Below are positions 28,256 through 62,743 of a stretch of DNA of 64,000 nucleotides, piece after piece. The translations under genes were made by a program, and so were the position numbers. The notes beneath the pieces were generated by a model. That model ran no database searches and had not been told where the DNA came from. It worked only from the letters and a program-made list of their open reading frames with translations. The DNA is from Pseudomonadota bacterium (lineage in GTDB: Bacteria; Pseudomonadota; Alphaproteobacteria; Sphingomonadales; Sphingomonadaceae), in NCBI GenBank assembly GCA_039033835.1, contig JBCCBW010000019.1:14036-78035 (forward strand). The letters are read 5' to 3'. Position 1 is the stretch's first letter; every line of letters starts with the position of its first letter.

Positions 28256-28344
28256 TGCACGCACAGCCTAACCCACAATCGCACCGAACTACGGCTATGC
28301 ATTCTGACAATGACTCGCAGGAAGAACGCGCGTAGCCTTGCCGG

Positions 28345-31877: not shown

Positions 31878-31998
31878 AAGTCTCTACTCCTGTGCCGGAC
31901 AGGATAGCTGAAAGCGCCCGAACCCAAGCCTCGTGATTTTCGCAGGGGAGCTCCGCGCGCTGCTCGTGGCATTGTCTGCGCAATTGAGGAGATGCAAA

Positions 31999-32367: not shown

Positions 32368-32888
32368 AGCTTGCGATACTTCGGATGCCCACCCTTATGG
32401 ATCTTGAGGGTCGGCAGCGGGAGTTCAGGGTCCGGATCGAACATCGGCTGGTTCGCAAGCGGGCTCTTCCAATCGAGAATGTAGGTGCGCGCCGAAATGC
32501 GCCACTCTGGCCCATTGTCACCGGCGCGCTTTTCCCACTCGTCGAGATAACGCCCACCGATCAGATCGCCAGCTATACTACCGTCCTCCTGCGTTCGCCC
32601 ACCGCCGAAAACCCCGTAGCATTCGCTGCTGGCGCTGGTAGGTGAGTGAAACCGGATCAGCGGCTGCGAAAGCAGGTGCCAGCGCCGGGCCAGATTGCTC
32701 TCGGTTTCCATTACCACCGGCAGGAAATCCTCGGCACGGCCCGTGAAGAACCCATATTCGATATGGGCATCCGGCCAGTAACAGCTCGCCTGCCCTTCTG
32801 CATCGAGCCAGTCGAGCGTGCGGCAGTATCGCTGGATCACCTCGCCGATCGCCTGCTTGTCGAGCAATTCCTGAAGTGCCGGCTCCAT
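32364..32888 (-). CDS. NTF2/SnoaL-like protein (SnoaL_4 type)
   Basis: LLDKQAIGEVIQRYCRTLD, GGRYLDEWEKR...WRISAR; start at ATG 32888. Confidence 0.85.
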   Translation of the reverse strand: MEPALQELLDKQAIGEVIQRYCRTLDWLDAEGQASCYWPDAHIEYGFFTGRAEDFLPVVMETESNLARRWHLLSQPLIRFHSPTSASSECYGVFGGGRTQEDGSIAGDLIGGRYLDEWEKRAGDNGPEWRISARTYILDWKSPLANQPMFDPDPELPLPTLKIHKGGHPKYRKL

Positions 32889-32977
32889 GATCGCGCCCTC
32901 CCCATTCCGCCAATTGTGCATGCGCCATATCGCGGTGATCCTGTGCCAAAGACCATAGGCAAATTCGGGAGTGAGAC

Positions 32978-35898: not shown

Positions 35899-35992
35899 AA
35901 GGACGCGCATGATGGCGGCGGGCAATTGCCCATTTTGGCAAGGTGCACTCCGCGGCGCGTATCGCTAGGCAAGCATTAAAGGGAGACAGGCC

Positions 35993-37729: not shown

Positions 37730-38149
37730 ATGTTCACAGGACCAATGGAGGATCGTCTCGCGATCCGCGAGTTGCATGAGGTCTATGGCGATGGTGTCGT
37801 GCGCTTCGATGCCGACACATGGGGATCGGTCTGGGCAGACGATGCGGATTGGGACTTCATGGGGATGAACCTGAAAGGCCGCGAGGTGATTGTGCAGACG
37901 TGGCTGGGCGCGATGTCGAACTTCGACGCCGTCAGCTTCAGTTGCGTCCCCGCATCCATTGAAGTCGATGGCGACAAAGCCACTTCGCAGGTCCAGACGC
38001 AGGAAGTGCTCAAGGGCAAGGACGGATCGACCCGGATGATCGGCGGGCTCTACACCGATGAGCTGGAAAAGCGTGACGGCGCGTGGGTTTACACCAAGCG
38101 CGCGTTTCAGATTGTTGCGGAATACAACCCTGCAGAGGAGACCGCCTAA
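37730..38149 (+). CDS. NTF2/SnoaL-like protein (SnoaL_4 type)
   Basis: EDRLAIREL, GLYTDELEKRDGAWVYTKR. Confidence 0.85.
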   Translation: MFTGPMEDRLAIRELHEVYGDGVVRFDADTWGSVWADDADWDFMGMNLKGREVIVQTWLGAMSNFDAVSFSCVPASIEVDGDKATSQVQTQEVLKGKDGSTRMIGGLYTDELEKRDGAWVYTKRAFQIVAEYNPAEETA

Positions 38150-39994: not shown

Positions 39995-40129
39995 CGGGAA
40001 AACTCCTTTGTATCGATGCCCTAATGCGCAGGCATGCGCGGTCGCTCCACGGACAAAAGTGCCAGTCGGTAAAAGTATCAGTCGCTGCCCTTGGCGTCTC
40101 TGGTATCTTCCCCTCAGAGGAGAAACCCG

Positions 40130-42280
40130 ATGGGTGTCGAAACGCACAAGACCTTCTGCCGCTTTTGTCATGCGAATTGCGCGATGGAAGTCGATGTCGA
40201 GGCCACACCAACAGGGCGCAAAGTGCTCGAAGTGCGCGGCGATCCAGGCGATCCGGCATTCGGCGGTTACACCTGCCTGAAGGGGCGCGAACTGCCGGAT
40301 TCGCACAATGCAGAGCACCGGCTGCATCACTCGCTGGTGCGCGATGCCGATGGCGAGTTTCAGGAAACCAAGATGCCCGATGCGCTTGCGCATGTCGCCG
40401 GAGAAATCCGCCGCATCATCGATGAGCATGGCCCCAATTCCGTGGCAGTGTTCATGGGGTCGGGCGGCTATCAGAACAGCGCCGCCATGGCCGCTTCGCT
40501 GAGCTTTGCGCAGGCCATTGGAACACGCAATTTCTACACCTCGGTAACGCTCGATCAGCCCGCCAAGGTGTTCACCACCGCGCGCTACGGCAAGTGGATG
40601 GGCGGGATGAACACGTTCTCCGAAAGCGACGTGTCTCTTCTGATCGGCAACAATCCGATTGTCTCGCATTACTCACCGCCGGGAGGAGTACCGCCCTTCA
40701 GCCCTTCGCGCCGCATCCGCGATGCGAAGGAGCGCGGCATGAAAGTGATCGTCGCCGATCCCCGCGAAAGCGACGTGGCGCGGCTCGCGGATATCTACTT
40801 GCCGGTAAAGCCGGGCGAAGACCCCGCGCTGCTCGCAGGAATGCTCAACGTGATCATCTCCGAGGAGCTTTACGACCGCAATTTCGTTGCAGCCCATGTC
40901 GACGGGTTCGAGGAATTGGCCGAAGCGGTAAAGTCGTTCACGCCCGATGTCGCCGCCGACCGCGCTGGAGTTGATGCCGACCAGTTGGTCGCAGCCGCAC
41001 GCATGTTTGCGGGCGGCTCAAAAGGCTGCGCGGTCACCGGAACCGGGCCGGAAATGGCGGGAAACGGAACGCTGACCGAATATCTCGTCACCTGCCTCAA
41101 CACGGTGTGTGCCCGGTTCAAGCAGGAGGGCGAAAAGGCCGCGATCCCCGGCGTCTTTACCAATATCAACGGCCCTCGCCGCGCTCAGGTCGGCCCGCCG
41201 GTGCCGATGTTCGGCGCAGACGGCATGGCCAAATCGCGCTTTCGCGGGCTGGGCCAGCTCGGCTTTGAAATGCCCTGCAATGTACTCGCCGATGAAATCC
41301 TCACACCCGGCGATGGTCAGGTGCGGGTGCTGATCTCGGTCGGCGGCAACCCGGTGGTGGGCTTTCCCGATCAGGCGAAGATGACCCGCGCGCTCGATCA
41401 TCTGGAAATGTTTGTGCAAATCGACCCGTGGATGAGCGCCAGCGCCAGGCGCGCCGATGTCGTCCTCGCACCGTCGCAGTGCCTTGAACGCGAAGACATC
41501 ACCAACCTTTCCGAATGGTGGCACGAGGAAGCCTATGCTCGTTATGTCGAGGCTATCGCGACCCCGCCGGGCGACGTGATCGACGAATATGAGATGTTCT
41601 GGACTCTCGCGCATCATCTCGGCGTGACGATGGAACTCGCAGGCGGCCCGCTGCCGATGGACGAGAAACCATCGAAAGAGACATTCCTCGATCTAATGAC
41701 GGCCGGATGCATCGTCCCGCCGAGTCAGGTACGCAAGGACGCTCGGAAAGCGGGCGGTGCAGCTGTGGTCTATGAGGACAAGCACCCAATTGTCGGACCG
41801 GTCGAGGAAGGCGAGTTCCACCGCTTCGGCCTTGATGTCGGCGACATGCCGGGTGAGTTGAAACGCTATGCGAGCAATCCGCCCGCGCGCGCAGGCTATG
41901 AGTTCAAACTGATCAGTCGCCGCTCCAAAACGCGGTTCAACTCGATCGGTCACCCGCTCAAGAAGCTGCAGGAAAAGACCACCACCAACCCAGCCTATAT
42001 CCACCCTGATGACATCGCGCAGCTGGGTCTGGAAGAGGGCGGGATCGTCGAAATTACATCGCCGCATGCGACCATTCACGGTGTTGTGAAAGCCAGTGAC
42101 AAGGTGCGGCGCGGGCTCGTCTCGATGGCGCATGCCTATGGCGATGCCGATGCCTCGAAAGAGGATGTGCGGGAGCGCGGTTCCTCGACCAACCGGCTGA
42201 CCAGCGAAGTGGTCGATTTCGATCCGATCACGGGGCAGAGCCTGCAAAGCGCGATCCCAGTGAAGCTGGTGGCAGCCTAG
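40130..42280 (+). CDS. molybdopterin (bis-MGD/DMSO reductase family) oxidoreductase, single subunit
   Basis: N-terminal CRFCHANC...C [4Fe-4S] motif, GNNP, ADPR, GGNP, C-terminal molybdopterin-binding domain (AYIHPDD); no Tat signal. Confidence 0.92.
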   Translation: MGVETHKTFCRFCHANCAMEVDVEATPTGRKVLEVRGDPGDPAFGGYTCLKGRELPDSHNAEHRLHHSLVRDADGEFQETKMPDALAHVAGEIRRIIDEHGPNSVAVFMGSGGYQNSAAMAASLSFAQAIGTRNFYTSVTLDQPAKVFTTARYGKWMGGMNTFSESDVSLLIGNNPIVSHYSPPGGVPPFSPSRRIRDAKERGMKVIVADPRESDVARLADIYLPVKPGEDPALLAGMLNVIISEELYDRNFVAAHVDGFEELAEAVKSFTPDVAADRAGVDADQLVAAARMFAGGSKGCAVTGTGPEMAGNGTLTEYLVTCLNTVCARFKQEGEKAAIPGVFTNINGPRRAQVGPPVPMFGADGMAKSRFRGLGQLGFEMPCNVLADEILTPGDGQVRVLISVGGNPVVGFPDQAKMTRALDHLEMFVQIDPWMSASARRADVVLAPSQCLEREDITNLSEWWHEEAYARYVEAIATPPGDVIDEYEMFWTLAHHLGVTMELAGGPLPMDEKPSKETFLDLMTAGCIVPPSQVRKDARKAGGAAVVYEDKHPIVGPVEEGEFHRFGLDVGDMPGELKRYASNPPARAGYEFKLISRRSKTRFNSIGHPLKKLQEKTTTNPAYIHPDDIAQLGLEEGGIVEITSPHATIHGVVKASDKVRRGLVSMAHAYGDADASKEDVRERGSSTNRLTSEVVDFDPITGQSLQSAIPVKLVAA

Positions 42281-43407: not shown

Positions 43408-44184
43408 ATGGCGCGCGATCTGCTCGTCCTGTCCGGCGGTCACCATTATGAGCGCGAACCCTTCGCCGAATTGCTCGGCAGTCTCGGCGAGTGGGACATC
43501 ACGCATCTCATGCACCCGGAAGCCGAAGAGGCAGTCGCCAATGGCCGCGCCTTGGAGGCGGACGCGGTGCTATTCTATGACATGGGCGGCTACACCTTTG
43601 CAGACGATTGGGTGACCTCGCGCCCGCCATCGCAAGCGTTTCGCCGGGCGATAGTTGAGCGGTTCGAAGGCGGTCGCGGCGCGGTTGCAATGCATCATGC
43701 GCTGGCCGGATGGGCGGACTGGCCCAAATGGCACGAAATGCTGGGCGGTCGGTTCCTCTACACACCGGGCGAAGTGCGCGGGAAGACTACGCTCGATTCC
43801 GGTTACCGCCACGATGTCGATTACGCCGCGCAGGCGGTGGCGGATCATCCGGTGACCGCCGGATTGCCGAAGGAATTCCGCGTCGTCGACGAACTCTATC
43901 TCGCCGAGATTTTCGAAGACGATGTCACGCCATTGGTGCGGTCGGATTACACCTTTACCCGCGACAATTTCTATTCCGCCGCTCTGGGTATTTCGGGGAC
44001 GCTGTATTCGAACGAGGGCTGGGAGCACCCGCCCGGCAGCAACCTGGTCGCATGGCACAAACGGGTTGGAAACGCGCCATTGGTTTACCTTCAATTCGGC
44101 GACGCACCTCAGACCTACGCCAATCCAAATGTACGACAGATGCTGACCAATGCGCTTGAATTCATCGCAGGAGAGACGCCATGA
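43408..44184 (+). CDS. ThuA-like domain protein (1)
   Basis: LLVLSGGHHYE, GAVAMHHA, HPVTAGLPKEFRVVDELY, VYLQFGD. Confidence 0.78.
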   Translation: MARDLLVLSGGHHYEREPFAELLGSLGEWDITHLMHPEAEEAVANGRALEADAVLFYDMGGYTFADDWVTSRPPSQAFRRAIVERFEGGRGAVAMHHALAGWADWPKWHEMLGGRFLYTPGEVRGKTTLDSGYRHDVDYAAQAVADHPVTAGLPKEFRVVDELYLAEIFEDDVTPLVRSDYTFTRDNFYSAALGISGTLYSNEGWEHPPGSNLVAWHKRVGNAPLVYLQFGDAPQTYANPNVRQMLTNALEFIAGETP

Positions 44185-44561
44185 CCCCGACCGAAACGAT
44201 CGAAGCCTTCATCGCCGCCTGGGACGAATACGATCTGGAAAAGATCTACTCTTTCATGGCCAACGATATTGAGTGGTCCGACATGCCGCTGTCCACCGTT
44301 AACGGGATCGATCAGGTCCGCGCCAAGATGGATATGTTTCCCGGCGTCGAGGCATGCGGATTCGATACGCATCACATCGCCGCCAATGGCAATGTCGTCC
44401 TGACCGAGCGCACCGACTGGTTCGAGATGAAGGGCCGCAAGCGGGTGATCAAGGTGATGGGCGTGTTCGAACTGAACGATGACGGCAAAATCGCCAAATG
44501 GCGCGATTACTTCGACAGCGCCGAGTTTGTGCGTGAGTTTGGCGATCTCGCCGACGGCTGA
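44181..44561 (+). CDS. limonene-1,2-epoxide hydrolase family (NTF2 fold) (2)
   Basis: VLTERTD and KWRDYFD motifs intact. Confidence 0.88.
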   Translation: MTPTETIEAFIAAWDEYDLEKIYSFMANDIEWSDMPLSTVNGIDQVRAKMDMFPGVEACGFDTHHIAANGNVVLTERTDWFEMKGRKRVIKVMGVFELNDDGKIAKWRDYFDSAEFVREFGDLADG

Positions 44562-48630: not shown

Positions 48631-49404
48631 ATGCCAGGGAAAATGGACTCCAAGGTCGCGCTGGTCACTGGCGGCGCGGAGGGGATCGGAGCCGCGGTCG
48701 GTCGGATGATCGTCGCCGAAGGCGGCAAGGTGCTGCTCTGCGATGTCCAGATCGACAAGGCCCGCGCGCTCGCAGAAGAACTGGGCGAGAATGCCGAAGC
48801 GTTTGAACTGGATGTGCGCGATCTCGATCGCTGGCACGAAGCGGTCAAAGCCGCGCAGGACCATTTGGGCAAGCTGACGGTCCTGTGCAACATCGCCGGT
48901 ATCTCCGAACCGGGCAATGTCGTCGATGTCGATCTCGATAGCTGGCAGCGGACCATCGACATCAACCTCGTCGGACCTTTCTACGGCTGCCGCGCCGCTC
49001 TTCCCGCGATGGAGGCGTCGGGCGAGCCTGCTGCCATCGTCAATATCGGTTCGATGATCGCCATCCGGGCTGCGGCTTTCGTGGCTGCCTACAGCGCTTC
49101 GAAAGCGGGCCTGCTCGGCCTGACCCGTAGCATCGCGCTCGATTGTGCCGAACGTGGCGTGCCGGTGCGGGCGAATATGGTGCATCCCGGTGCGATCCGG
49201 ACACCGATGTACGACCGGTACAAATATTCCGGGATGGCCGAACCTGAAGTGGTCGAAGAACAATTCGCCGCGACCCACCCGATGAACCGCATCGGTGAAC
49301 CCGAAGAAGTGGCCAAGGCGGTCGTCTTCCTCGCCAGCGATGAAGCAAGTTTCACCACCGGCTGCGACTTCACCGTCGATGGCGGCGGGTCGATTAGGAG
49401 CTGA
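48631..49404 (+). CDS. classical SDR
   Basis: TGGAEGIG, NIAG, YSASK; start 48622 or 48631. Confidence 0.92.
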   Translation: MPGKMDSKVALVTGGAEGIGAAVGRMIVAEGGKVLLCDVQIDKARALAEELGENAEAFELDVRDLDRWHEAVKAAQDHLGKLTVLCNIAGISEPGNVVDVDLDSWQRTIDINLVGPFYGCRAALPAMEASGEPAAIVNIGSMIAIRAAAFVAAYSASKAGLLGLTRSIALDCAERGVPVRANMVHPGAIRTPMYDRYKYSGMAEPEVVEEQFAATHPMNRIGEPEEVAKAVVFLASDEASFTTGCDFTVDGGGSIRS

Positions 49405-49405
49405 T

Positions 49406-50173
49406 ATGAGCGACCAACCAACAACACGGATCGACGCGCATTTCATCGCTGCGGGCAAGTATCATGACATCGACTATCCCCGGCTGGAAATCCTGAAGCT
49501 GCTCGCCGAACATCCGCATATTCGCACGACGGTGGCAGCCGATTATTCGGGGCTGGAACGGCTCGATCAGTGCCGCTTCCTCATCACCTATACCTGCGAT
49601 CTGATGCCGACCGAGGAGCAGGCGGCGCAGCTGCGCGCGTGGGTCGAGGGCGGTGGCAAATGGCTGGCGCTGCATGGCACCAACTCGATCCTGGTTTTTA
49701 CCGAGGAAGGCCTGGTCGCTTGCCCGGAAGACCGCCCGGATGTGTTCGAAATGCTCGGCACGCAGTTCAAGGCGCATCCGGTTATTGGTCCATTCGAGGT
49801 CGAAGTGGTCAACAAGGATCACGAACTCACCCGCGGGATCGACGATTTCGAAGTGGTCGATGAGCTGTACCTGTCGAAGACAACCGCCCCGATCGACACG
49901 CTGATGCAAACCACGTTCGAAGGTGAAGCCACCGGCTTTGTCGAGGCAAACTGGGAAAAGACCAGCGTGCCGATCCTCTACACCCGCGACATCGGCAAGG
50001 GGCGGATCGTCTACAACACGCTCGGCCATTGCCGGGGGCACTACGACCTACCCGGAATGCAGGATTTCTACCCGCACAAGGAAATGTGCGCGTGGAATTA
50101 CGACGTTTACTACGACCTTCTGCGCCGCTCGATTGGCTGGGCCCAAAGAGACGATGCGCGAGAAGGCGAATAA
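49406..50173 (+). CDS. ThuA-like domain protein (2)
   Basis: GGKWLALHGT, HELTRGIDDFEVVDELY, GRIVYNTLGH; start ATG 49406. Confidence 0.8.
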   Translation: MSDQPTTRIDAHFIAAGKYHDIDYPRLEILKLLAEHPHIRTTVAADYSGLERLDQCRFLITYTCDLMPTEEQAAQLRAWVEGGGKWLALHGTNSILVFTEEGLVACPEDRPDVFEMLGTQFKAHPVIGPFEVEVVNKDHELTRGIDDFEVVDELYLSKTTAPIDTLMQTTFEGEATGFVEANWEKTSVPILYTRDIGKGRIVYNTLGHCRGHYDLPGMQDFYPHKEMCAWNYDVYYDLLRRSIGWAQRDDAREGE

Positions 50174-53009: not shown

Positions 53010-54632
53010 TCACTCCGTATTCTCATCCGCCAACTGCTGCGCCGTCTTGTAATCCGGCTTGCCATTGTTCAGTCGTAGGGATCGGTCGGTGAATACATAC
53101 ATTCGCGGTATCTTGTACCCGGCCAGCTCGTCGCGCGCATGGCCGTCGAGTGCCTCTTCCAATCTGTCCGGCGCACAGCCTTTGATTTCGACCACTGCGA
53201 CGACCTTCCGCCCAAACCGCTCATCGGGCAGGCTGACGACGCGCACATCGTTCACCGCCGGGTGGCTTTGCAGGACCGCTTCGACTTCTTCGGGGAAGAC
53301 CTTCTCGCCGCCCGTGTTGATGCACATATTGTCTCGGCCGATGAACTCCATCGTGCCATCGGGCGACCAACGGGCCTGATCCCCCGTCATCAACCAGCGC
53401 TTGCCGCCGATCTCGGGGAAGGTTTGCGCGTTCTTCTCGGTCTCGCCGAGATAGCCGAGCGGCAGCGGGCCGGTGCGTGCGACGATGCCCACGCCCTCTT
53501 CGCCCGGTTCGATTTCCTTCAAATTTTCGTCGAACAGTTTGGTCTCTCGCCCTGGAAGCGGCTGAAATTTGCCTCCGCCGGTCGATCCGGCGGCTGTGGT
53601 GATAACGATACCGGTGCCTGAGCTTTCGCTGGAGCCGAGCGCGTCGATGATCACCATCTGCGGATGATGGCCAAGCAACCGCTTCTTCAAGCCTTCGGAA
53701 AACACAGCGCCCGATGATGTCACCATCCGCAGGCTCGCAAGCACATCGGCCCCATCGCCGCGAGCATCCAGTCGATCGGCGAGCGGAAGCGCGAAAGCAT
53801 CGCCGACGATGAAGATACCGCGCGCACCCAGCCGCTTGACCTCGTCCAGCGCCAGATCGGCATCGAACTTCTCCGCTGGAAGCAGGGCCAGTGTCCCACC
53901 TTTCAACAGGTGGATAACGGCTGTGAATTGCCCAGCGCCATGCATCAGCGGGCTGAGCAGCAGCATCGGCGACATGCTCGCAGGATGATCGGGGCCGATC
54001 CTGGCCGCTTCATCGACCTGCGCTTCGAGCGAGGTGGCAACGAAGGGCGGCTCGCCAAAACCGCGCTGCCAGACCGAGATATTGAACGCCTGCCATGCCT
54101 CGACCATCGGCCACATCACCGCTTTGGGCATGCCGGTGGTGCCGCCGGTCGCGGTCAGGAACAGCGCCTGCGGATCGTCATTGATAGCGAAATCAGATGG
54201 CAGATCGTGCGCTCGCAATGCTGCCCAATCTGCGTGGCCGACATCGATTGTCACCGTGTCCGCTGGCATCGCCGCCGCACCCGGCTCAGCAAAGTCGCTT
54301 TCGGTGAACAGCGCCTTCAGGCCGAACCGCTCGAAGATGTCGGCGAGTTCGCGGGCCTTGTAGTGGTAGTTCACATTCACCGGAACCACGCCTGCTTTGA
54401 TGCAGCCGAAATAGGCGAGAATGTAATCGGGATTGTTGCGCAGCATCTGGCCCGCAATGTCGCCGGGTTTCAGGCCACGCTCGCTCAGGCCCGCCGCGAT
54501 TGCATCGGTTTGCGCATCCAGCTCACCCCAACTGAGCACCCGATCACCATGGACCACGGCAGGACGGTCCGGCTCGATTGCCGCAGCCAGTGCCTTCAGC
54601 GCATGACCAAAATTCTCGCCCTGCCACACCAT
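53010..54632 (-). CDS. acyl-CoA synthetase (ANL family, FadD19-like)
   Basis: TGGTTGMPK, LGSSES, TGDQA, GRDNMCINTGGEKVFPEEVE, NNGKPDY; real start ATG 54632. Confidence 0.92.
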   Translation of the reverse strand: MVWQGENFGHALKALAAAIEPDRPAVVHGDRVLSWGELDAQTDAIAAGLSERGLKPGDIAGQMLRNNPDYILAYFGCIKAGVVPVNVNYHYKARELADIFERFGLKALFTESDFAEPGAAAMPADTVTIDVGHADWAALRAHDLPSDFAINDDPQALFLTATGGTTGMPKAVMWPMVEAWQAFNISVWQRGFGEPPFVATSLEAQVDEAARIGPDHPASMSPMLLLSPLMHGAGQFTAVIHLLKGGTLALLPAEKFDADLALDEVKRLGARGIFIVGDAFALPLADRLDARGDGADVLASLRMVTSSGAVFSEGLKKRLLGHHPQMVIIDALGSSESSGTGIVITTAAGSTGGGKFQPLPGRETKLFDENLKEIEPGEEGVGIVARTGPLPLGYLGETEKNAQTFPEIGGKRWLMTGDQARWSPDGTMEFIGRDNMCINTGGEKVFPEEVEAVLQSHPAVNDVRVVSLPDERFGRKVVAVVEIKGCAPDRLEEALDGHARDELAGYKIPRMYVFTDRSLRLNNGKPDYKTAQQLADENTE

Positions 54633-54767
54633 CGCCTGAATCTCCTTTACAGTGCTCGTGGCGTAGCCAGCAGAAACCCGCAATGCCCCTGCGTAAAGTA
54701 TGAGGCGAATCACATAAGATGGGTTAGGCTGCGCGCGACGGGACTTGAGGAGAGGAGGAGCCAGACC

Positions 54768-55812: not shown

Positions 55813-56346
55813 TCAAAGACTCCTCAACGGCTCGCTCCCATCCCAGTCCTCGCCAGCCTGCTTGATCATCGCAAACAGCCCTGGTCCGGCTTCACCCTGT
55901 TGCAGGATTTCCACCAAGCTACCTGGCCCTTGTCCCGGATCGACATAAATCACCCGGCTGTCTCCGAGCGATCCCTCGATCACAATCTCAGCACACTGTT
56001 CGCCGCAGACGCGATACGCCTCTTCGATATCGTCGACGAGAATGCAGACATGGTGCAGCCCATCATTCACAGCCGCATATTCACCCGAATAGATCGACGG
56101 GTGATCGTCGCGTGGGCGGATCAGCTCGATCTGGAGATCGCCCCAATAGGCCAACGCGAGATCGAAAACGGCCTCCGTAGGTTCACCGTGGTACTTCATG
56201 CCTTCCAGATGAATGCCCTCCATCAGGAAGAATGGCCCTACGCCCATCACCTCGGTCCAGTGCCTGACCGCAGCGTCGAAATCCTTCGGCACAAAGGCAA
56301 GCTGCATTACCTCCCCCAGCCCTGCAATTCCTCCTGCGCGCGCCAT
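55813..56346 (-). CDS. VOC/glyoxalase family protein (2)
   Basis: MQLAFVPKDF, LQIELI, GLHHVCILVDD, LVEILQ; GGAGAGG RBS before ATG 56346. Confidence 0.85.
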   Translation of the reverse strand: MARAGGIAGLGEVMQLAFVPKDFDAAVRHWTEVMGVGPFFLMEGIHLEGMKYHGEPTEAVFDLALAYWGDLQIELIRPRDDHPSIYSGEYAAVNDGLHHVCILVDDIEEAYRVCGEQCAEIVIEGSLGDSRVIYVDPGQGPGSLVEILQQGEAGPGLFAMIKQAGEDWDGSEPLRSL

Positions 56347-56447
56347 GAATCCTCTCCAATCCGATAGTGTGACCGCAGGGCGAACCTGTGTGATATTCTC
56401 TCCAACGGACACTGCACAAAGTGCGAGGAATCAGGATCACACCCGCC

Positions 56448-57872
56448 ATGAACGAGATCAAAGACATCAAACGCCAAGATCGCTGCCCGGGCATGACCTA
56501 TACCGACATGCTCGAAGGCGACACGCGCACGCCGCCGGATTACCTGTTCGAAGAAACGAACATCGACATGCCGAACGATCCGCTGCCGATCGAGCCGTAT
56601 GTGAGCGAGGAATATGCAGCGCTCGAACGCGAGAAGCTGTGGCCGAATGTCTGGCTGTTCGCCGCGCGCGAGGATGAGCTGCCCGATCCCGGCGACACGG
56701 TCGTGTTCGAGATCAACGAGAAAAGCTTCCTGATCACCCGCCAGCGCGACGGCAGCGTGCGCGCGTTCTACAATGTTTGCCTGCACCGCGGACGCAAGTT
56801 GCGCACCGAAGATGGCAACACCACGCAGTTCCGCTGCCCGTTCCACGGCTTCACCTGGAAAACCGATGGATCGCTGAAAGAAATTCCGTGCGAATGGGAC
56901 TTCAAGCATTTGCAGGACAAGGACATGAGCCTGCCCGAAGTTCGCGTCGAGCTGTGGCAGGGCTTTGTGATGATCACCGAGAACGCCGATCTGCCGGACT
57001 TCAAGACCTGGCTCGGCCCGGCAGCCGATCACTACGACAATTACGACATGGAAAACCGCTACACCGGCATGTGGGTCGCGCGGAAGATCCCGGCCAACTG
57101 GAAGGCCACAGCCGAGGCCTTCATGGAAGCGTGGCATTCAATCACCACGCACCCGCAATTGCTGCCGTTTCTCGGCGATGCCAACAGCCGCTACGACCTG
57201 ATCGGCGACCACTTCAATCGTGCGATCACTCCGTCAGGCGTGCTCAGCCCGCATCTCAAGGGCAAGACTCAGCAATATGTGCTCGACAAGATGGCTGAGT
57301 TCTCCGGTGGATCGGATGCCGAGACCAATCGCCGCTATGCCGCGAGTGAGGAGCAGGTCGAGATCGACGAGAGCGATCCGTTGCAAGCGCGCAAGCTGTT
57401 GGCCGAGGCCAGCCGGGCTGGCTTCGCCGAAGCATATGGCCACGATTATTCGGACAAGTCGGACTCCGAAATTCTCGACAATTTCACCTACAACATCTTC
57501 CCCAACTTCGCGCCGTGGATCGGGTATCTTCCGACGCTGTGCTACCGCTGGCTGCCCGGCGACACGCCCGATTGGTGCGTGATGGAGATCCGCTTGCTGT
57601 TCCCGACGCCCAAGGGCGAGAAGCGACCGCGCGCAGTCGAGAAGGTCACTATTCCCGAAGACCAACCCTTCGCCTGGGCCAAGGATGTCATGGGCGAAGC
57701 GCTGGCGGGTGTGTTCGATCAGGACATGGCGAACCTGCCGCATGTGCAGACGGGCATGAAGGCATCGGGCAACGGGATCATGGAACTCGGCGCGTATCAG
57801 GATAGCCGTGTGCGCCATTTCCAGACGACTTTGCGGAAATATATCGACGGCGAGCTGCCAGCCGCTAAGTAG
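56448..57872 (+). CDS. Rieske non-heme iron oxygenase alpha subunit (3)
   Basis: CLH...CPFH and EAWHSITTH motifs, DQDMANL. Confidence 0.92.
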   Translation: MNEIKDIKRQDRCPGMTYTDMLEGDTRTPPDYLFEETNIDMPNDPLPIEPYVSEEYAALEREKLWPNVWLFAAREDELPDPGDTVVFEINEKSFLITRQRDGSVRAFYNVCLHRGRKLRTEDGNTTQFRCPFHGFTWKTDGSLKEIPCEWDFKHLQDKDMSLPEVRVELWQGFVMITENADLPDFKTWLGPAADHYDNYDMENRYTGMWVARKIPANWKATAEAFMEAWHSITTHPQLLPFLGDANSRYDLIGDHFNRAITPSGVLSPHLKGKTQQYVLDKMAEFSGGSDAETNRRYAASEEQVEIDESDPLQARKLLAEASRAGFAEAYGHDYSDKSDSEILDNFTYNIFPNFAPWIGYLPTLCYRWLPGDTPDWCVMEIRLLFPTPKGEKRPRAVEKVTIPEDQPFAWAKDVMGEALAGVFDQDMANLPHVQTGMKASGNGIMELGAYQDSRVRHFQTTLRKYIDGELPAAK

Positions 57873-57880
57873 CTCTGTCC

Positions 57881-58633
57881 ATGAGCATCTCTGTCGACCT
57901 CTCCGGGCGCAATGCGCTGATCACCGGCGCATCTTCGGGCCTTGGATCTCGTTTTGGGCGCATCCTCGCTGCAAATGGAGCGAATGTCGCGCTGGGCGCC
58001 CGGCGCAAAGATCGGCTTGAGGCGTTGGCCAACGAGATTGGGCCGCAAGCCGCTGCGGTAGAGATGGATGTGGCGCGCGAGGCAGATATCGTCGCGGGCT
58101 TCGACGCTGCCGAGCGGGCTTTCGGAACCATCGATACAGTGATCGCCAATGCCGGTGTCGATGGCGCGGGCATGATCAACGATATGTCCGAAGAGGAAAT
58201 CGAGCGGACGCTGGCGATCAATCTTAAGGGGGCAATCCTGACCGCTCGCGAAGGTGCCAAGCGTATGATCGCTGCGGGCAATGTGAAGGGCCGGATCGTG
58301 ATGATCGCCTCGATCACCGCTTTCGAACCCTCGCCTGGTCTGGTTGCCTACTCGGCCAGCAAGGCCGGCGTAGTGCAGGCGGCGCGCAGCATGGCCCGTG
58401 AATGGGCGCGCGCTGGTATCTGCGTGAACACGATCTCCCCCGGCTACATCCGCACTGCGATCAACGACGAATGGTTCGACACCGATCTCGGCAAGAAGCA
58501 AATCGCGCGCTTTCCCAAGCGCCGGTTGATGGCGGAAGAAGGGCTGGACGGCCCGGTGCTGTTCCTGTGCTCCGATGCAGGGGAGTTTGTGACGGGCGCC
58601 GATTTCGTGCTGGATGACGGGCAGACGTTATAG
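57881..58633 (+). CDS. classical SDR
   Basis: TGASSGLG, ANAG, YSASK. Confidence 0.92.
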   Translation: MSISVDLSGRNALITGASSGLGSRFGRILAANGANVALGARRKDRLEALANEIGPQAAAVEMDVAREADIVAGFDAAERAFGTIDTVIANAGVDGAGMINDMSEEEIERTLAINLKGAILTAREGAKRMIAAGNVKGRIVMIASITAFEPSPGLVAYSASKAGVVQAARSMAREWARAGICVNTISPGYIRTAINDEWFDTDLGKKQIARFPKRRLMAEEGLDGPVLFLCSDAGEFVTGADFVLDDGQTL

Positions 58634-58645
58634 GGCAAAAGTTCC

Positions 58646-59338
58646 ATGCCGCATGACCGCAAGCTCTTTATCGCCTCGCCATCGATTGGCGTGAACCCTT
58701 CGGATTTCGAGTTCTTCGAAGAGCAGCGCCTCCATCGCGAAGCTGATCATTCCGCAAGGCCTCTGCACACGCAGACTGGAAACAAGGCTGCTACTCGTTT
58801 TGGTCTTCCCCAATACAAGGAAACGCCGCGTTTAAAGGTCGCACTTAAAAACAAACCGCTCGACTTCTATGGCTTCGAGCGCTGGATTCTCTCTTCGCGA
58901 GCTAAGGACCTGTTGCATGCGATGGACCCAGCCGCCTTCGATTTCAGGAAATGCGAAACAAGCGCACCGCCCCGACACAACATTGACAATTATTGGATTG
59001 GGAAGGTGCGCCGCGTGATCGAGGAATTCGACCGTGGTGCCTCGAACTTCGAAAAAGCGGGTAGGCAGTGGGATGTCGGTTTAGAAGAGTGGACTTTCAA
59101 TCACGCGATCAGAAAGCTGAACACATTGGTGCTTCATCCCGGACACGAGGAATCGTTGGCGTTCTATATCCTCGATTATTCTCTCTACCCCATTTTTGAT
59201 GGGCGGCTCGTCGAGGCAATCCGGGGTGCAGGGCTACGCGGCCTGATGTTCTCTCCGTTGCAATGGCCGGACAAAGGCGATGTGAGAACTGTCTACATCG
59301 AGAACTACGGCTACTGGAAGGATCAAGGCGCGCTATAG
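58646..59338 (+). CDS. hypothetical protein, Imm11/DUF1629-like
   Basis: WILSSRAKDLLHAMDPAAFDFRKC...YWIGKVRR pattern resembles DUF1629/Imm11 proteins; lower GC. Confidence 0.55.
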   Translation: MPHDRKLFIASPSIGVNPSDFEFFEEQRLHREADHSARPLHTQTGNKAATRFGLPQYKETPRLKVALKNKPLDFYGFERWILSSRAKDLLHAMDPAAFDFRKCETSAPPRHNIDNYWIGKVRRVIEEFDRGASNFEKAGRQWDVGLEEWTFNHAIRKLNTLVLHPGHEESLAFYILDYSLYPIFDGRLVEAIRGAGLRGLMFSPLQWPDKGDVRTVYIENYGYWKDQGAL

Positions 59339-59363: not shown

Positions 59364-59750
59364 TTATGCTTTCGCCGCCACCTGCTTCGCATCGAAATAA
59401 TGGATGCGCAGTTCCTTTAGCAGCCCATCCTCAAACGCGCCGCATTCGTTGACGGTCTGGCTGAACGTTTCGCCAGTGCGCATTGACGTCATGGTGAGCG
59501 TCAGAACCGTCACCGCGTGCGTATCTCCGCCGGTGATATCGTGAATATCGACGCTAGCTTCGGCCCAGGTACCGTACATCGCCGCTGCGCAGCGTTGCAG
59601 CGCATCCTTTCCGCGCCACTCACCGCCGAAGGGCAGGCATTCGGCTTCGTAAAGCACGAAATCCGGATGGATCAGCGATTCCACTTTGTCCCAGTCGCGC
59701 GCCCCAGCCGCCATATAGACCGCTGATAGCAATTCGCGCGGTGCGCTCAC
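59364..59750 (-). CDS. NTF2/SnoaL-like protein (SnoaL_2 type)
   Basis: LIHPDFVLYEAECLPFGGEWRGKD, ELRIHYFD; start inferred at GTG 59750. Confidence 0.8.
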   Translation of the reverse strand: MSAPRELLSAVYMAAGARDWDKVESLIHPDFVLYEAECLPFGGEWRGKDALQRCAAAMYGTWAEASVDIHDITGGDTHAVTVLTLTMTSMRTGETFSQTVNECGAFEDGLLKELRIHYFDAKQVAAKA

Positions 59751-59757
59751 CGCTGAG

Positions 59758-59988
59758 TTACTCAATCGTCCCGACCAGATCGCCAACCTTGTACTTCGTG
59801 CCTTCCTCACCGGTCGGGCGGATCACCCCGCCCGCTTGCGCTTCGATCTCGACCGTCGTCTTGTCGGTTTCGGCGGTGTAGATGATATCGCCTTTTGCGA
59901 CTTCCTCTCCATCGCCGAACATCCATTCGGACAGGGTCACTTCGGTTGCGCTCATCCCGAGCTTGGGGATGCGGATTTCTTCGGCCAA
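59758..59988 (-). CDS. stand-alone lipoyl carrier domain
   Basis: IPKLGMS...ETDKTTVEIEAQAGG (lipoyl Lys in DK); 76 aa with no E2 catalytic domain. Confidence 0.9.
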   Translation of the reverse strand: MAEEIRIPKLGMSATEVTLSEWMFGDGEEVAKGDIIYTAETDKTTVEIEAQAGGVIRPTGEEGTKYKVGDLVGTIE

Positions 59989-59991
59989 GGC

Positions 59992-60978
59992 TCAGTCCTT
60001 TCCTACCGAGGCTTTGATCTGTGCGACAATATCGCTCTTTTGCGGGATCCATGCCTGCTCAAGATGCGTCGCGAACGGCACTGCAGAGAATGTCCCGCCG
60101 ATGCGGCGCACCGGGCCTTTGAGGTTGTCCCAACATTTCTCCTGGATGTTCGCAGCGATCTCCGCGCCGGTGCCGAACGGGCGCACCGCCTCATGCAGGG
60201 TTAGCGCGCGCCCGGTCTTGTTGACGCTCGCAAGCACGGTTTCCTCGTCATAGGGAGCGATGGTGCGCAGGTCGATCACTTCGACGCTGATACCTTCCTT
60301 CTCCAGCTCACCGGCCACTTCCAGCGCGTCGAGCACAGTGCGGCCATAGGTGATGAGCGAGATGTCGGAGCCTTCTTTCGCCACCGCCGCCTTGCCCAGC
60401 GGCACGCGGTATCCGGGGCCGGGATCTTCCGATGTGAGCCCGTAGCACAGGATGTTTTCGATAAAGATCACCGGGTCGTTGGCATCGATCGCGGACCGCA
60501 TCAGACCGCGCGCATCGGCGGCGTTGGATGGCGTCACCACATGGATCCCGGCGACGTGAGCAAACCATGCCTCCAGCATATCCGAATGTTGCCCGCCGAA
60601 GCCGACACCCACGCCGGTGGTGGTGCGGATAACGATCGGGCACGGCGTCTGCCCGCCGCTCATGAAGCGGAGTTTAGCCGCGTGGTTGACGATCTGGTCC
60701 ATGCACACGCCCACGAAGTTCATCAGCATGATCTCTGCGATGGGACGCTGCCCGGCGAGCGCCGCGCCTACAGCGGCACCGATAATCGCGGTTTCGGAAA
60801 TCGGCGTCGCGCGGATGCGGTTCTCGCCGTATTTCTCAGACAGGCCGGAGGTGATCTTAAACACCCCGCCGCCTTGTTTGGCCGCGACATCTTCGCCCAG
60901 GCAGAACACGCCATCATCTTCGGCCATCGCCTCGTCAATCGCGAGGTTGAGCGCCTGCGTCATGGTAATCTCGGCCAT
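59992..60978 (-). CDS. 2-oxoacid/acetoin dehydrogenase E1 beta subunit
   Basis: GEDV, TPISETAIIG, QHSDMLE, VIDLRTIAP. Confidence 0.93.
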   Translation of the reverse strand: MAEITMTQALNLAIDEAMAEDDGVFCLGEDVAAKQGGGVFKITSGLSEKYGENRIRATPISETAIIGAAVGAALAGQRPIAEIMLMNFVGVCMDQIVNHAAKLRFMSGGQTPCPIVIRTTTGVGVGFGGQHSDMLEAWFAHVAGIHVVTPSNAADARGLMRSAIDANDPVIFIENILCYGLTSEDPGPGYRVPLGKAAVAKEGSDISLITYGRTVLDALEVAGELEKEGISVEVIDLRTIAPYDEETVLASVNKTGRALTLHEAVRPFGTGAEIAANIQEKCWDNLKGPVRRIGGTFSAVPFATHLEQAWIPQKSDIVAQIKASVGKD

Positions 60979-61946
60979 CAGGCAGTCTCCTCAAGCACGT
61001 CTTTGTAAATCTCATTGATGTCCGGCAGCGGCGCATCGAGTGCATGCTGAACCGCCGCGTCGATATCGGCGTCGATCTTGGCAACGATCGCGTCGAGTTC
61101 CTCTTCGGTGAACTGCCGTTCAAGCATGACCTGCCGCAGCTTTGGTAACGGGTCTTCGGCCTGCATTTCCGCAAGGTGCTCAGGCGGCATGTAGGAGAAG
61201 TCCGAGCCGAAGAAGTGGCCCATCATGCGGTAACACATTGCCTCGACCAGAACCGGCCCCTTGCCCGAACGCGCGTGCTCGACAGCTTCCTCCATCGCAG
61301 GGTAGACTTCATTGACATTGTTACCGTCGACTTTGATGCCCTTCATCCCGTATCCCGCAGCGCGGCTTGAGATGTCGGTACTGTCGGTATGGTCGGCATA
61401 GGCGGTATGCTCGCCATAGCGGTTGTTCTGGCACAGAAAGACAACCGGCAGCTTATAAAGCTGGGCCATGTTCATCGCTTCGTGGAAGCCGCCAATATTG
61501 GCCGCGCCGTCGCCAAAGCTGACGAGTGTGACCCGGCCATCGCCATTGTTCTGGCTCGCCATCGCCAGGCCGTTGGCAATCGGCAGTCCGCTGCCGACAA
61601 CGCCGGTGGTGACCATGATCCCGGTTTCGGGATCGGTGATGTGCATCGTGCCGCCTTTGCCTTTGCAGGTGCCGGTCGCCTTGCCGAGACACTCGCCCCA
61701 CCATTTCTCCAGCGGAATACCCTTCGCCGTCTGTTCGCCCTGCCCGCGATAGGTGCACACGACATAATCGTCGTCCTCCAGCGCAGCCATAGCGGCGGCA
61801 GAGACGAGCTCCTGCCCGCGCACACAATAATACATGACGGCAACTTTGCCCTGCATCAGCAGCTCGCGGAATTTCTCGTCCGTGCGGTTCACCTTCATCG
61901 TGCGGGTGTAGATATCAAGCAGCTTGTCGCGTTCTATCTCGGCCAT
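60978..61946 (-). CDS. 2-oxoacid/acetoin dehydrogenase E1 alpha subunit (TPP)
   Basis: GKGGTMH, GDGAAN...QNN TPP motif, YRMMGH. Confidence 0.93.
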   Translation of the reverse strand: MAEIERDKLLDIYTRTMKVNRTDEKFRELLMQGKVAVMYYCVRGQELVSAAAMAALEDDDYVVCTYRGQGEQTAKGIPLEKWWGECLGKATGTCKGKGGTMHITDPETGIMVTTGVVGSGLPIANGLAMASQNNGDGRVTLVSFGDGAANIGGFHEAMNMAQLYKLPVVFLCQNNRYGEHTAYADHTDSTDISSRAAGYGMKGIKVDGNNVNEVYPAMEEAVEHARSGKGPVLVEAMCYRMMGHFFGSDFSYMPPEHLAEMQAEDPLPKLRQVMLERQFTEEELDAIVAKIDADIDAAVQHALDAPLPDINEIYKDVLEETA

Positions 61947-61978
61947 GGATCGGAGCCTTCCTGTAATGGATTAAATGC

Positions 61979-62743
61979 TTAGAACTGGACGCGCTGCGTG
62001 AAGCCGCCATCGACCACGACATTCGCGCCGGTCATGTATGGGCAGGCCGGGCTCGCGACGAAGACCACCGCCTTCGCGACTTCCTCCGGCTCGCCAAAGC
62101 GGCCCATCGGTATCTTCGCCAGCGTCCCTTCGTAAAGCGGCGGCACGGCGTCCTTGATCATCTCCCAGTTTCCACCAGAATAGTAGATCGCGCCGGGTGA
62201 GACGCAGTTTACGCGGATGCCCATCGGCGCCAACGCCTGGCTCAGCTGCGAACCATGGGTGATGAGCGCGGCCTTAAGTGCGTTGAAAGCTTGCGGTGCC
62301 ACGAAAGTCTCAAGCGCTGCGGTCGATGACATCAGCACAATTGACCCGCTGTCCGAGGCTTCGAGATGCGGGGTCAGCACTTCGATCGCATGGACTGCGC
62401 CAAGGATATCCATGTCGAGACCCTGCTGCCAATCGCCTGTCCCGCCGGTGCCAGAAGAGCTGGCCATGTGAACGAAGATATCGCAGCCGCCCAGCGCATC
62501 CGCCGCATCGCCAATCCATTTCTTGTAAGCGTCCGCGCCGCTCGCCATGTCGAAGACCTCGCCATGAACCTTGCCCGGACCAGCCGCGTCTATTTCTTTC
62601 TTCGCGGCCTCGATCTTGTCTTCCTTGCGGCTGAAAAACGCGACATCCGCGCCTTCGGCAGCAAAGTGCCGGAGCGAGGCGAGGCCAAGGCCGTGCGCAC
62701 CGCCATTCATGATGACTTTCTTGCCGGTAAGTCCCAGATCCAT
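61979..62743 (-). CDS. SDR family protein (catalytic Tyr replaced by Phe)
   Basis: NGGAHGLG, FNALK at the YxxxK position, RVNCVSPG; start ATG 62743. Confidence 0.88.
   Translation of the reverse strand: MDLGLTGKKVIMNGGAHGLGLASLRHFAAEGADVAFFSRKEDKIEAAKKEIDAAGPGKVHGEVFDMASGADAYKKWIGDAADALGGCDIFVHMASSSGTGGTGDWQQGLDMDILGAVHAIEVLTPHLEASDSGSIVLMSSTAALETFVAPQAFNALKAALITHGSQLSQALAPMGIRVNCVSPGAIYYSGGNWEMIKDAVPPLYEGTLAKIPMGRFGEPEEVAKAVVFVASPACPYMTGANVVVDGGFTQRVQF

Follow-up and report, generated by a model that had tools for sequence, protein, structure and literature searches.

An E1 and a free lipoyl protein without an E2 core form a conserved operon in a sphingomonad catabolic island

Results

The operon, its E1 and its lipoyl carrier

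We analysed a 64-kb stretch of DNA, referred to as the window, from a bacterium of the Sphingomonadaceae (64,000 nucleotides; contig JBCCBW010000019.1, positions 14,036 to 78,035). The subject of this study is an operon on it that encodes the two subunits of a thiamine-dependent E1 and a free lipoyl protein, and that holds no gene for E2, the acyltransferase, or for E3, the dihydrolipoamide dehydrogenase. The original prediction had described the unit as SDR-E1alpha-E1beta-76-aa lipoyl protein-SnoaL (SDR, short-chain dehydrogenase/reductase). Five open reading frames (ORFs) with Pfam support were indeed found in this order on the minus strand:

61979-62743, minus strand: SDR, 254 aa (Pfam adh_short and adh_short_C2, 6.9e-40), gene 1 of the operon
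60978-61946, minus strand: E1alpha, 322 aa (Pfam E1_dh, 1.4e-72), predicted from its motif to bind thiamine diphosphate
59992-60978, minus strand: E1beta, 328 aa (Pfam Transket_pyr and Transketolase_C, 1e-38)
59758-59988, minus strand: lipoyl protein (Lip), 76 aa, TTG start (Pfam Biotin_lipoyl, 5.9e-13)
59364-59750, minus strand: SnoaL_2/NTF2-like protein (SnoaL), 128 aa (Pfam SnoaL_2, PF12680, 1.5e-13), last gene of the operon

The stop codon of E1alpha overlaps the start of E1beta, and the gaps are 3 nt between E1beta and Lip, 7 nt between Lip and SnoaL and 32 nt between SDR and E1alpha. For SnoaL the GTG at 59750 was used, which is the start in homologues; the ORF itself extends back to 59810. 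Scanning the operon for promoters and terminators gave no signal above chance, and the sequencing runs that contained the operon were metagenome DNA runs only, with no RNA run among them. Exact database look-ups of the window's lipoyl protein and E1alpha returned no record, so the gene context was taken from relatives, whose proteins bear generic RefSeq names only.

In the E1alpha translation the GDG...NN thiamine-diphosphate motif and the active-site histidine (in YRMMGH) were present, as were the glutamate of PISE and the histidine of GGQHS in that of E1beta. Because the cofactor motif and the active-site residues are intact in the translations, the E1 is apparently able to catalyse its reaction, the lipoyl-dependent step included. 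Both subunits carry the Pfam families of 2-oxoacid and acetoin dehydrogenase E1 (PF00676 in E1alpha, PF02779 plus PF02780 in E1beta). The nearest solved relative of E1alpha was human pyruvate dehydrogenase (PDH) E1alpha (163 bits), and the closest structures and models were the E1 components of PDH and of branched-chain 2-oxoacid dehydrogenase (BCKDH). However, E1alpha scored 279.7 bits against the NCBIfam PDH equivalog, under the cut-off of 393.85, and E1beta covered only positions 139-461 of the 464-residue PdhB model NF008854, lacking the N-terminal lipoyl domain of that model. A Sphingobium homologue of E1alpha (49% identical) is automatically annotated as the alpha subunit of acetoin:DCPIP oxidoreductase, that is, as AcoA-like.

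The predicted lipoyl-lysine of the carrier is K43, in the motif ETDKT, and the T-D-K lysine motif was invariant in 82 sequences. PF00364 was the sole Pfam family on this protein; the H-protein family of glycine cleavage (GCV_H, PF01597, about 125 aa) was not matched. Its best NCBIfam match was the N-terminus of AcoC (positions 3-77 of a 372-position model). The AlphaFold2 (AF2) model (pLDDT 89) found its best Protein Data Bank (PDB) matches in the lipoyl domains of E2 proteins (TM about 0.9, root-mean-square deviation about 1 Å), and the 50 structural neighbours listed were E2 lipoyl and biotinyl domains only, with no H protein. At the level of sequence and fold, the carrier agrees with a lipoyl domain whose modifiable lysine lies at the tip of a beta-hairpin, and K43 would be the site of lipoylation. 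By its family assignment and modelled structure the free carrier is an E2-type lipoyl domain, distinct from the H protein. The H protein had been cited earlier as a known free lipoyl carrier; Pfam and the structure match assign the present domain to the E2 type instead. A biotin carrier was ruled out by the T-D-K motif, by the E1 neighbour and by lipoyl domains being the top structural matches. The carrier has at least 474 database relatives; among the 120 database clusters listed, 119 were exactly 76 aa long and one was 75 aa.

Absence of E2 and E3, and conservation of the unit

Neither the window nor 84 Erythrobacteraceae loci (+/-10 kb) gave a tblastn match to 15 E2 catalytic-domain proteins. 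No tethering E2, with the subunit-binding domain PF02817 and the core-forming acyltransferase PF00198, was found in the operon, the window or the 84 related loci. Scans of the window for the E2 active-site motif DHRxxDG and for the redox disulphide motif of E3 gave nothing, and Pfam detected no PF00198 or E3 in the window ORFs from 12 kb to the window end, the first 12 kb being covered by tblastn and the motif scans. Among the related E1 loci, which we numbered with the prefix L, the E3 redox motif was absent from L001-L169 except L098; further DHRxxDG matches in related loci were spurious, out-of-frame ORFs. The Pfam tables of four related contigs listed no E2 or E3 within +/-10 kb. The claim that no acyltransferase or dihydrolipoamide dehydrogenase gene is present was thus borne out in the window. 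The absence of E3 weighs little, since E3 is often shared and encoded elsewhere.

The source bacterium is a marine one of Erythrobacter type and falls in the Erythrobacteraceae. The five-gene neighbourhood was surveyed in the 84 Erythrobacteraceae loci, and SDR-E1alpha-E1beta-Lip was kept in every informative locus, as far as the contig permitted. Relatives of E1alpha were found in at least 322 species by a pattern scan; the best 80 were Erythrobacteraceae species with 88-95% identity, and E1beta was 89-98% identical in the relatives from this family. In Erythrobacteraceae the unit holds a fixed position beside purE/purK. Against the window, the median ratio of nonsynonymous to synonymous substitution (dN/dS) was 0.06 for each E1 subunit, 0.15 for both Lip and SnoaL and 0.16 for SDR (dS about 0.8-1.4), and all five genes are under purifying selection. 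It had been considered earlier that homologous operons might routinely include E2 and E3, which would make this unit a decayed copy. For the closest relatives this is not so, and the unit is not a decayed copy.

A free carrier across a large E1 clade

The nearest other E1alpha cluster was only 48% identical, in a library clustered at 50% identity. We fetched 80 loci around relatives of this neighbouring cluster, scored them with profiles of the window proteins and placed their E1s in a neighbour-joining tree. Sister-type E1alpha relatives occur in at least 591 species. Wherever an E1 of the resulting superclade had a lipoyl domain beside E1beta, this domain was always encoded on its own, as a protein of about 76 aa. 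Such E1s came from Paraburkholderia, Pseudomonas, Zoogloea, Comamonadaceae, Azospirillum and Sphingopyxis, together with Salinisphaerales, Zhongshania, Nocardia, Actinoplanes and Acidimicrobiales. As judged from the tree and the neighbourhoods, the 76-aa carrier was already free in the ancestor of a large E1 clade that takes in Alpha-, Beta- and Gammaproteobacteria and Actinobacteria.

In the sister branch, 15 of 45 loci had a split E2, i.e. a gene for the catalytic domain only, directly after the carrier gene. Its product of about 250 aa matched PF00198 at 2e-76 and contained no lipoyl or subunit-binding domain. For example, in Paraburkholderia sp. PGU19 the pair is named in RefSeq 'lipoyl domain-containing protein' and '2-oxo acid dehydrogenase subunit E2', the catalytic-domain protein having the accession WP_180736708.1. 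The split E2 shows that in this clade the carrier works detached from a core and that transfer to coenzyme A (CoA) was the ancestral fate of the acyl group. The window's own branch comprises the window, all Erythrobacteraceae, several Sphingomonadaceae and some gammaproteobacteria and actinobacteria, and no E2 catalytic gene was found within +/-10 kb in any of its loci. The more distant outgroup E1s have ordinary E2s of 344-618 aa. Since distant E1s have an ordinary E2 and the whole branch has none, the E2-less state is, by this distribution, old, stable and common to the whole deep branch. The architecture is one end of a series that runs from a full-length E2 through a split E2 to a lipoyl protein only.

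Some members of the family depart from this pattern. In Novosphingobium (L093-L100) and on a plasmid of Sphingobium sp. TomTYG74 (L166), E1alpha-E1beta stood without a lipoyl protein or an E2 in the neighbourhood, so that even the lipoyl domain of such E1s would have to come from elsewhere. Several of the assemblies hold a canonical E1-E2-VOC operon elsewhere (BL-8H, CTOTU50391 and CTOTU50270). Two Acidimicrobiales loci (L142 and L143), basal in the clade, encode a single E1 protein of 618-674 aa in which the alpha and beta parts are fused. This fused E1 is followed in L142 by a free lipoyl protein of 93 aa, and in L143 the lipoyl match lay within a long ORF.

The Rieske partner and the catabolic island

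Next to the operon lie three genes that are likely to share its pathway:

56421-57872, plus strand: Rieske oxygenase alpha subunit (Pfam Rieske and Ring_hydroxyl_A), convergent with the operon, probable functional partner
57881-58633, plus strand: ordinary SDR (SDR2; Pfam adh_short, 2e-51), downstream of the Rieske gene, probable pathway partner
55813-56412, minus strand: VOC/Glyoxalase_4 protein (Pfam Glyoxalase_4), probable pathway partner

In Novosphingobium tardum and most Erythrobacteraceae the Rieske gene is a neighbour of the unit, and SDR2 was kept beside the Rieske gene in related loci. This Rieske protein matched the Rieske family that adjoins E1-Lip in 24 of 45 distant loci (about 40% identity, 345-367 bits), whereas the other two Rieske genes of the window that were tested scored at most 139 bits against that family. 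Because the match is selective for one paralogue, the sequence comparison marks the oxygenase and the E1 as a conserved pair across the clade.

The surrounding island contains three Rieske alpha subunits, two cytochromes P450, at least four acyl-CoA dehydrogenases, two AMP-dependent ligases, a DUF35-thiolase pair, a KstD-like flavoprotein, many SDRs, six NTF2-like proteins and a TonB receptor. Around the E1-Lip genes of relatives there were likewise acyl-CoA dehydrogenases, hydratases, DUF35-thiolase pairs, CoA ligases and KstD-like genes, to which the clusters of the Paraburkholderia relatives add MMPL, DUF1302 and DUF1329 uptake genes. E2-less units often have an AMP-dependent ligase gene in their vicinity (53010-54650 in the window). 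These islands resemble those for steroid or terpenoid catabolism, and the recurring Rieske link inside them points to an undescribed thiamine-dependent C-C cleavage step in alicyclic breakdown. The suggestion that the unit cleaves a C-C bond of an alicyclic intermediate is reasonable in this setting, with the unit and its relatives placed in islands of Rieske, P450, acyl-CoA dehydrogenase and thiolase genes.

Several other features of the island were recorded. The KstD-like FAD_binding_2 gene (34269-35925, minus strand) appears split near 34750 by a frameshift, as a pseudogene or through an assembly error: of the 414 profile positions, the ORF at 34717-35925 corresponds to 1-303 and the ORF at 34269-34769, which overlaps it, to 321-414. 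Inside the island there are also a bis-MGD molybdopterin oxidoreductase (40091-42280, plus strand) and two ThuA-like genes (43408-44184 and 49295-50173, both plus strand). The arrangement of ThuA, P450 and acyl-CoA dehydrogenase recurs in Novosphingobium tardum (L167). At the island edge an autotransporter beta-domain protein of 721 aa is encoded (12257-14422, minus strand), with a third-position GC content below that of its neighbours. Between the ordinary SDR and SnoaL lies an ORF of the Imm11 family, which resembles immunity proteins of polymorphic toxins (58646-59338, plus strand). At this place close relatives have an AraC/DJ-1-type regulator, an OmpA-like protein and a small ORF, a local replacement at the 3' end of the operon.

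A sister module with a complete E2

In one Novosphingobium locus (L140) a full-length E2 is encoded 7 kb from the unit, and a search with this E2 revealed a related module. Such sister operons were seen in Novosphingobium (L203, L221, L228, L230 and L234), in the order SDR-SnoaL_2-SDR-E1alpha-E1beta-full-length E2-VOC, with Rieske genes near. Their E2 has lipoyl, two subunit-binding and catalytic domains (all three kinds are present in L203). Compared with the window, identities were 62-64% for the SDR, 35-36% for SnoaL, 39-41% for E1 and 30-36% for the Rieske protein. Since the same partner families stand beside a full-length E2, SnoaL, SDR, VOC and the Rieske oxygenase appear to be pathway partners regardless of the form of E2.

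We compared 80 canonical E1-E2 operons from Sphingomonadales, and in most of them E2 is followed directly by a VOC gene whose product is 50-63% identical to the window VOC; a VOC match of any identity was found in 69 of the 80 loci. The window VOC has a weak likeness to methylmalonyl-CoA epimerase (36.5 bits against TIGR03081, under the cut-off). An epimerase-like VOC after E2 in the sister operons, and its homologue here, point by analogy to an acyl-CoA product. The canonical operon of one Erythrobacteraceae member lies amid thiolase, acyl-CoA dehydrogenase and P450 genes. Canonical and free-carrier modules stand side by side in L140 and L126, where the specialised sister E2 could serve the free carrier in trans.

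The atypical SDR

The replacement of the catalytic tyrosine of the SDR by phenylalanine, as had been read from the sequence, is real: AFNALK aligns with vYsatK of solved SDRs. Furthermore, the same alignment placed an invariant aspartate (LDMDILG) at the asparagine of the tetrad, so that the protein has D-S-F-K instead of the N-S-Y-K (Asn-Ser-Tyr-Lys) of classical SDRs. Phe and Asp were invariant in 80 homologous loci, and among 30 database relatives Phe was nearly and Asp fully invariant. The glycine-rich dinucleotide motif NGGAHGLG of the Rossmann fold is present, with invariant glycines. Against the BudC model the SDR scored 125.7 bits, with a cut-off of 270.

The Phe-type SDR adjoins free-lipoyl E1s in Alpha- and Gammaproteobacteria and in Actinobacteria (L102, L108, L116 and L122), and in two of these loci, L102 and L108, it occurs beside a split E2 catalytic gene too. 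In contrast, its Tyr-type homologues adjoin E1s with a full-length E2 (L203 and L221); they are 62-64% identical and keep Asp at the Asn site. The first SDR of the sister operons is of this Tyr type (PQAYNAIK). From these neighbourhoods, the change from Tyr to Phe follows the free-carrier state.

SnoaL and the question of an unloader

The AF2 model of SnoaL (pLDDT 95) is a generic NTF2 cone of the alpha+beta type, with TM 0.8-0.87 to NTF2-like structures. The closest of these were uncharacterised NTF2 proteins, TerC, IdmH, limonene epoxide hydrolase and ketosteroid isomerase, with an identity to all structural neighbours of only 14-20%, and there was no PDB relative at the sequence level. SnoaL was the least conserved member of the operon (44-95% identity across the Erythrobacteraceae loci). 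It was missing from four otherwise intact loci (L019, L034, L040 and L072), where the operon ends at Lip, was displaced by an ORF of about 750 aa in L017, L022 and L076, and was absent from the Novosphingobium tardum locus.

SnoaL and a thioesterase had both been put forward as proteins that might unload the carrier. The thioesterase presumably meant lies on the far side of the island, 31 kb away:

27842-28264, minus strand: 4HBT-type thioesterase

This distance speaks against it. For SnoaL, the weakest conservation in the operon, the four intact loci without it, its being one of six NTF2-like genes of the window, and a fold that matches only isomerase, cyclase and hydrolase types all argue against such a role. 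Because its homologue accompanies a full-length E2 in the sister module, SnoaL is, on this comparison, a pathway partner and not a substitute for E2.

The six NTF2/SnoaL-like genes (27306-27845, 31933-32367, 32364-32921, 37730-38149, 44181-44561 and 59364-59750) represent an unusual density of small ligand-binding or isomerase folds for a 64-kb island, and one of them, which is limonene-epoxide-hydrolase-like, adjoins a P450 gene. Relatives with a split E2 or with none also encode small folds for hydrophobic ligands, within a few kb on the downstream side of the gene for the carrier or for the E2 catalytic domain, a position that recalls that of SnoaL. These were ABM monooxygenase-like, SRPBCC and NTF2 folds, for example on plasmids of Paraburkholderia sp. 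PGU19 (L165, 17057-18061) and Azospirillum B510 (L169, 18482-18939).

Discussion

A possible role in alicyclic C-C cleavage

We propose that E1 and its cognate carrier form a specificity module which, together with the Rieske oxygenase, cleaves a C-C bond of an alicyclic compound, and that housekeeping E2 and E3 finish the reaction; in our judgement this has about an even chance of being correct. The Rieske oxygenase, perhaps with the ordinary SDR, would make a hydroxylated carbon beside a carbonyl. The E1alpha2beta2 tetramer would attach thiamine diphosphate to the carbonyl and cleave the C-C bond as in acetoin cleavage, the substrate being most likely an alpha-hydroxyketone or a 1,2-dicarbonyl and less likely a 2-oxoacid. 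The acyl fragment would then be moved by reductive acylation to the lipoyl-lysine of the free 76-aa carrier. Housekeeping E2 cores and E3 could act in trans, transferring the acyl group to CoA and re-oxidising the dihydrolipoyl group, which would yield acyl-CoA and NADH. The acyl-CoA might enter the beta-oxidation-type genes of the island, with the epimerase-like VOC helping to process the product, and SnoaL, VOC and the two SDRs would be pathway enzymes that act on substrate or product without replacing E2. Speculatively, if the fragment were acetyl, a tertiary alpha-hydroxy methyl ketone would give a ketone and acetyl, the E2 of PDH would be the natural acceptor, and a dedicated catalytic domain could for this reason have been lost.

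E1 is said to need its cognate lipoyl domain, whereas E2 and E3 reportedly accept lipoyl groups largely regardless of the protein that carries them, free lipoamide included. If E1 is the one component that demands a cognate domain, the operon could retain E1 and carrier alone. Published precedents make the sharing of E2 and E3 in trans plausible by analogy. In Corynebacterium, for example, OdhA relies on lipoyl groups that belong to the E2 of PDH, and the human E1a enzyme (DHTKD1) draws on E2o and E3 from the oxoglutarate complex (PMC8146983, PMC7568260).

Several points weigh against this proposal. It requires that E2 and E3 be used in trans, and neither gene was found in the window. An untethered free domain would lose the active-site coupling behind the efficiency of the complexes. 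The nearby AMP-dependent ligase fits a release of the fragment as free acid rather than as acyl-CoA. No Aco-specific or other diagnostic NCBIfam model matched the E1 at the thresholds used. The specialised E2 of the sister module offers little help for most Erythrobacteraceae: among the 80 best relatives of its Erythrobacter copy none came from the 80 Erythrobacteraceae assemblies that bear the unit, and the same list kept relatives of 59-68% identity from other families. By this argument from ranking, which involved a pattern pre-filter, most Erythrobacteraceae are probably without the specialised E2, and it was set aside as their trans partner, for which it would have been the most obvious choice. 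Finally, the invariant D-S-F-K SDR has no role in the proposed scheme, which keeps an E2-independent route open.

Alternative explanations

In such an E2-independent system the carrier would be unloaded by hydrolysis, with the AMP-dependent ligase re-activating the acid, or by the D-S-F-K SDR, SnoaL or a thiolase-like enzyme, and its re-oxidation may take a route other than E3. We consider this unlikely. It agrees with the lack of an E2 catalytic gene within 10 kb in any branch member, with the apparent absence of the specialised canonical E2 from typical Erythrobacteraceae, with AMP-dependent ligase genes that adjoin or lie near E2-less units, and with the specific occurrence of the Phe-type SDR beside free-lipoyl E1s in three phyla and of the Tyr-type beside a full-length E2. 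However, the genuine E2 catalytic domain in the sister branch makes CoA transfer by E2 chemistry ancestral, the SnoaL homologue coexists with a full-length E2 and is dispensable in some species, and the Phe-type SDR is also found with a split E2 catalytic gene. In addition, we know of no acyl-lipoyl transferase with an SDR or NTF2 fold. A bolder version, which we regard as rather unlikely, is that a core-less E1-carrier pair opens or trims alicyclic ketones: an acyloin made by the Rieske oxygenase would be cleaved onto a diffusible lipoyl protein and discharged without E2, and the D-S-F-K SDR, as a new carrier-handling protein, would have arisen when the lipoyl domain became free. If true, both the enzyme architecture and the use made of protein-bound lipoate would be new.

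Two other explanations keep the housekeeping components and change the substrate. The E1 could be a classical 2-oxoacid dehydrogenase component that oxidatively decarboxylates a 2-oxoacid of the pathway, such as a ring-cleavage product, with the rest as in the proposed scheme. The PDH and BCKDH E1s as closest structures and models would suit it. Moreover, in estrogen degraders C4 of a meta-cleavage 2-oxoacid is reportedly lost through an oxidative decarboxylation that yields a CoA ester, by an enzyme of a different family (EdcC), so such a step exists in ring catabolism. However, an extradiol dioxygenase or a hydrolase, which could supply the oxoacid, is not consistently linked, and the constant partner is a Rieske oxygenase, which yields hydroxylated carbons and not oxoacids. 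Although acyloin cleavage and decarboxylation are inseparable by sequence alone, we think a 2-oxoacid quite improbable. The unit might also be an acetoin/2,3-butanediol operon, in which the SDR is butanediol-dehydrogenase-like, E1alpha and E1beta are AcoA and AcoB, and AcoC is reduced to its lipoyl domain; PDH E2 would handle the acetyl-lipoyl group and the link with the alicyclic island would be coincidental. Operons for acetoin use may have a butanediol dehydrogenase, and the SDR as gene 1 recalls them. The AcoC match of the carrier and the AcoA-like annotation in Sphingobium favour this explanation, the very high conservation and the fixed purE/purK position suggest a common small substrate, and an acetyl product would explain the lack of a dedicated E2. 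We find it decidedly doubtful all the same: an SDR without the catalytic Tyr and Asn, far below the BudC cut-off, is not a likely butanediol dehydrogenase, one and the same Rieske orthogroup recurs with E1-Lip in different phyla, and the relatives lie inside clusters of KstD-like, acyl-CoA dehydrogenase, thiolase and MMPL/DUF1302/DUF1329 genes. That the unit is the non-functional, decaying remnant of a complete dehydrogenase operon seems hardly credible. E2 and E3 are absent and the SDR has lost two catalytic residues, as would be expected of a remnant. Yet the five ORFs are intact and under selective constraint, E1 is 88-98% identical across genera, the carrier has a nearly constant length, the E2-less state is common to a deep branch, and the SDR substitutions are invariant rather than scattered.

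Significance and comparison with known systems

Textbooks present lipoyl-dependent dehydrogenases as giant machines tethered to a core. In the large and strongly conserved bacterial family described here the machine is dismantled, with the lipoyl domain free and the catalytic half of E2 either in a separate gene or missing. If housekeeping E2 and E3 serve the carrier, a new substrate could join central metabolism by means of an E1 and its cognate domain, which would be useful for pathway engineering; if they do not, there would be a new way of using protein-bound lipoate. The alicyclic breakdown concerned would be that of marine and soil Sphingomonadales, Burkholderiales and actinobacteria.

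We found no paper on the E1/free-carrier family in the open-text literature with queries on free lipoyl proteins, the RefSeq names and acetoin-dehydrogenase-like ring cleavage. Thiamine, E1 and lipoyl proteins were unmentioned in papers on bile-salt degradation in Sphingobium, on the Comamonas TA441 clusters and on tomatine-degrading Sphingobium. Two candidate parallels were dismissed: the actinobacterial estrogen genes aedGHJ are reported as hydroxyacid dehydrogenase, decarboxylase and CoA ligase and not as E1/E2, and the 'lipoyl carrier' of Pelobacter is the H-protein-like LarG. The suggestion of an undescribed architecture thus held as far as the literature goes, and needs qualifying in that the arrangement is one end of the series of full-length, split and lipoyl-only E2 forms.

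One of the systems nearest in kind is acetoin dehydrogenase (AcoA/AcoB/AcoC with or without AcoL), as in Cupriavidus necator, Pelobacter carbinolicus and Bacillus subtilis. Both have an E1alpha/E1beta of the heterotetramer type and a lipoyl acceptor, an SDR gene is often in the acetoin operon and E3 is often outside it, as here, and acyloin cleavage is the chemistry that best fits the Rieske partner. However, AcoC (about 370 aa) has its catalytic domain fused to the lipoyl domain, whereas only the lipoyl part is present here, together with an SDR without the catalytic Tyr, an alicyclic island and the Rieske partner. With PDH-type complexes the unit shares the E1 fold families and cofactor motifs, and its carrier superposes on E2 lipoyl domains; it differs in having no subunit-binding domain, catalytic core or E3, in the separate carrier and in an E1alpha below the PDH equivalog cut-off. 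It would work like an acetoin or 2-oxoacid dehydrogenase, yet it has no tethering E2 core and, on its gene content, should not be counted as a member of those complexes. The Novosphingobium sister module, itself uncharacterised, shares the protein families and differs in its complete E2 and Tyr-type SDR.

In OdhA (KGD)-AceF (DlaT) of Corynebacterium glutamicum and mycobacteria, lipoyl and acyltransferase domains also stand on different polypeptides and one E3 is shared (PMC7568260, PMC8146983). There, E1 is fused to the E2 catalytic domain and borrows lipoyl domains, whereas the present E1 has a lipoyl domain of its own and no catalytic domain, and the sister branch encodes the catalytic domain as a separate third protein. 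DHTKD1 is alike in being an E1 for a special substrate that has no E2 or E3 of its own and works on a housekeeping core (PMC8146983), as the present E1 may do in trans. It uses the E2o lipoyl domain and binds the core, whereas here there is a dedicated carrier gene and nothing suggests core binding. By analogy, the carrier may resemble the H protein of glycine cleavage, a small soluble lipoyl shuttle between enzymes that the common E3 re-oxidises. However, the H protein belongs to another fold family and has the pyridoxal phosphate-dependent P protein as its partner, while the partner of the window carrier is a thiamine-dependent E1.

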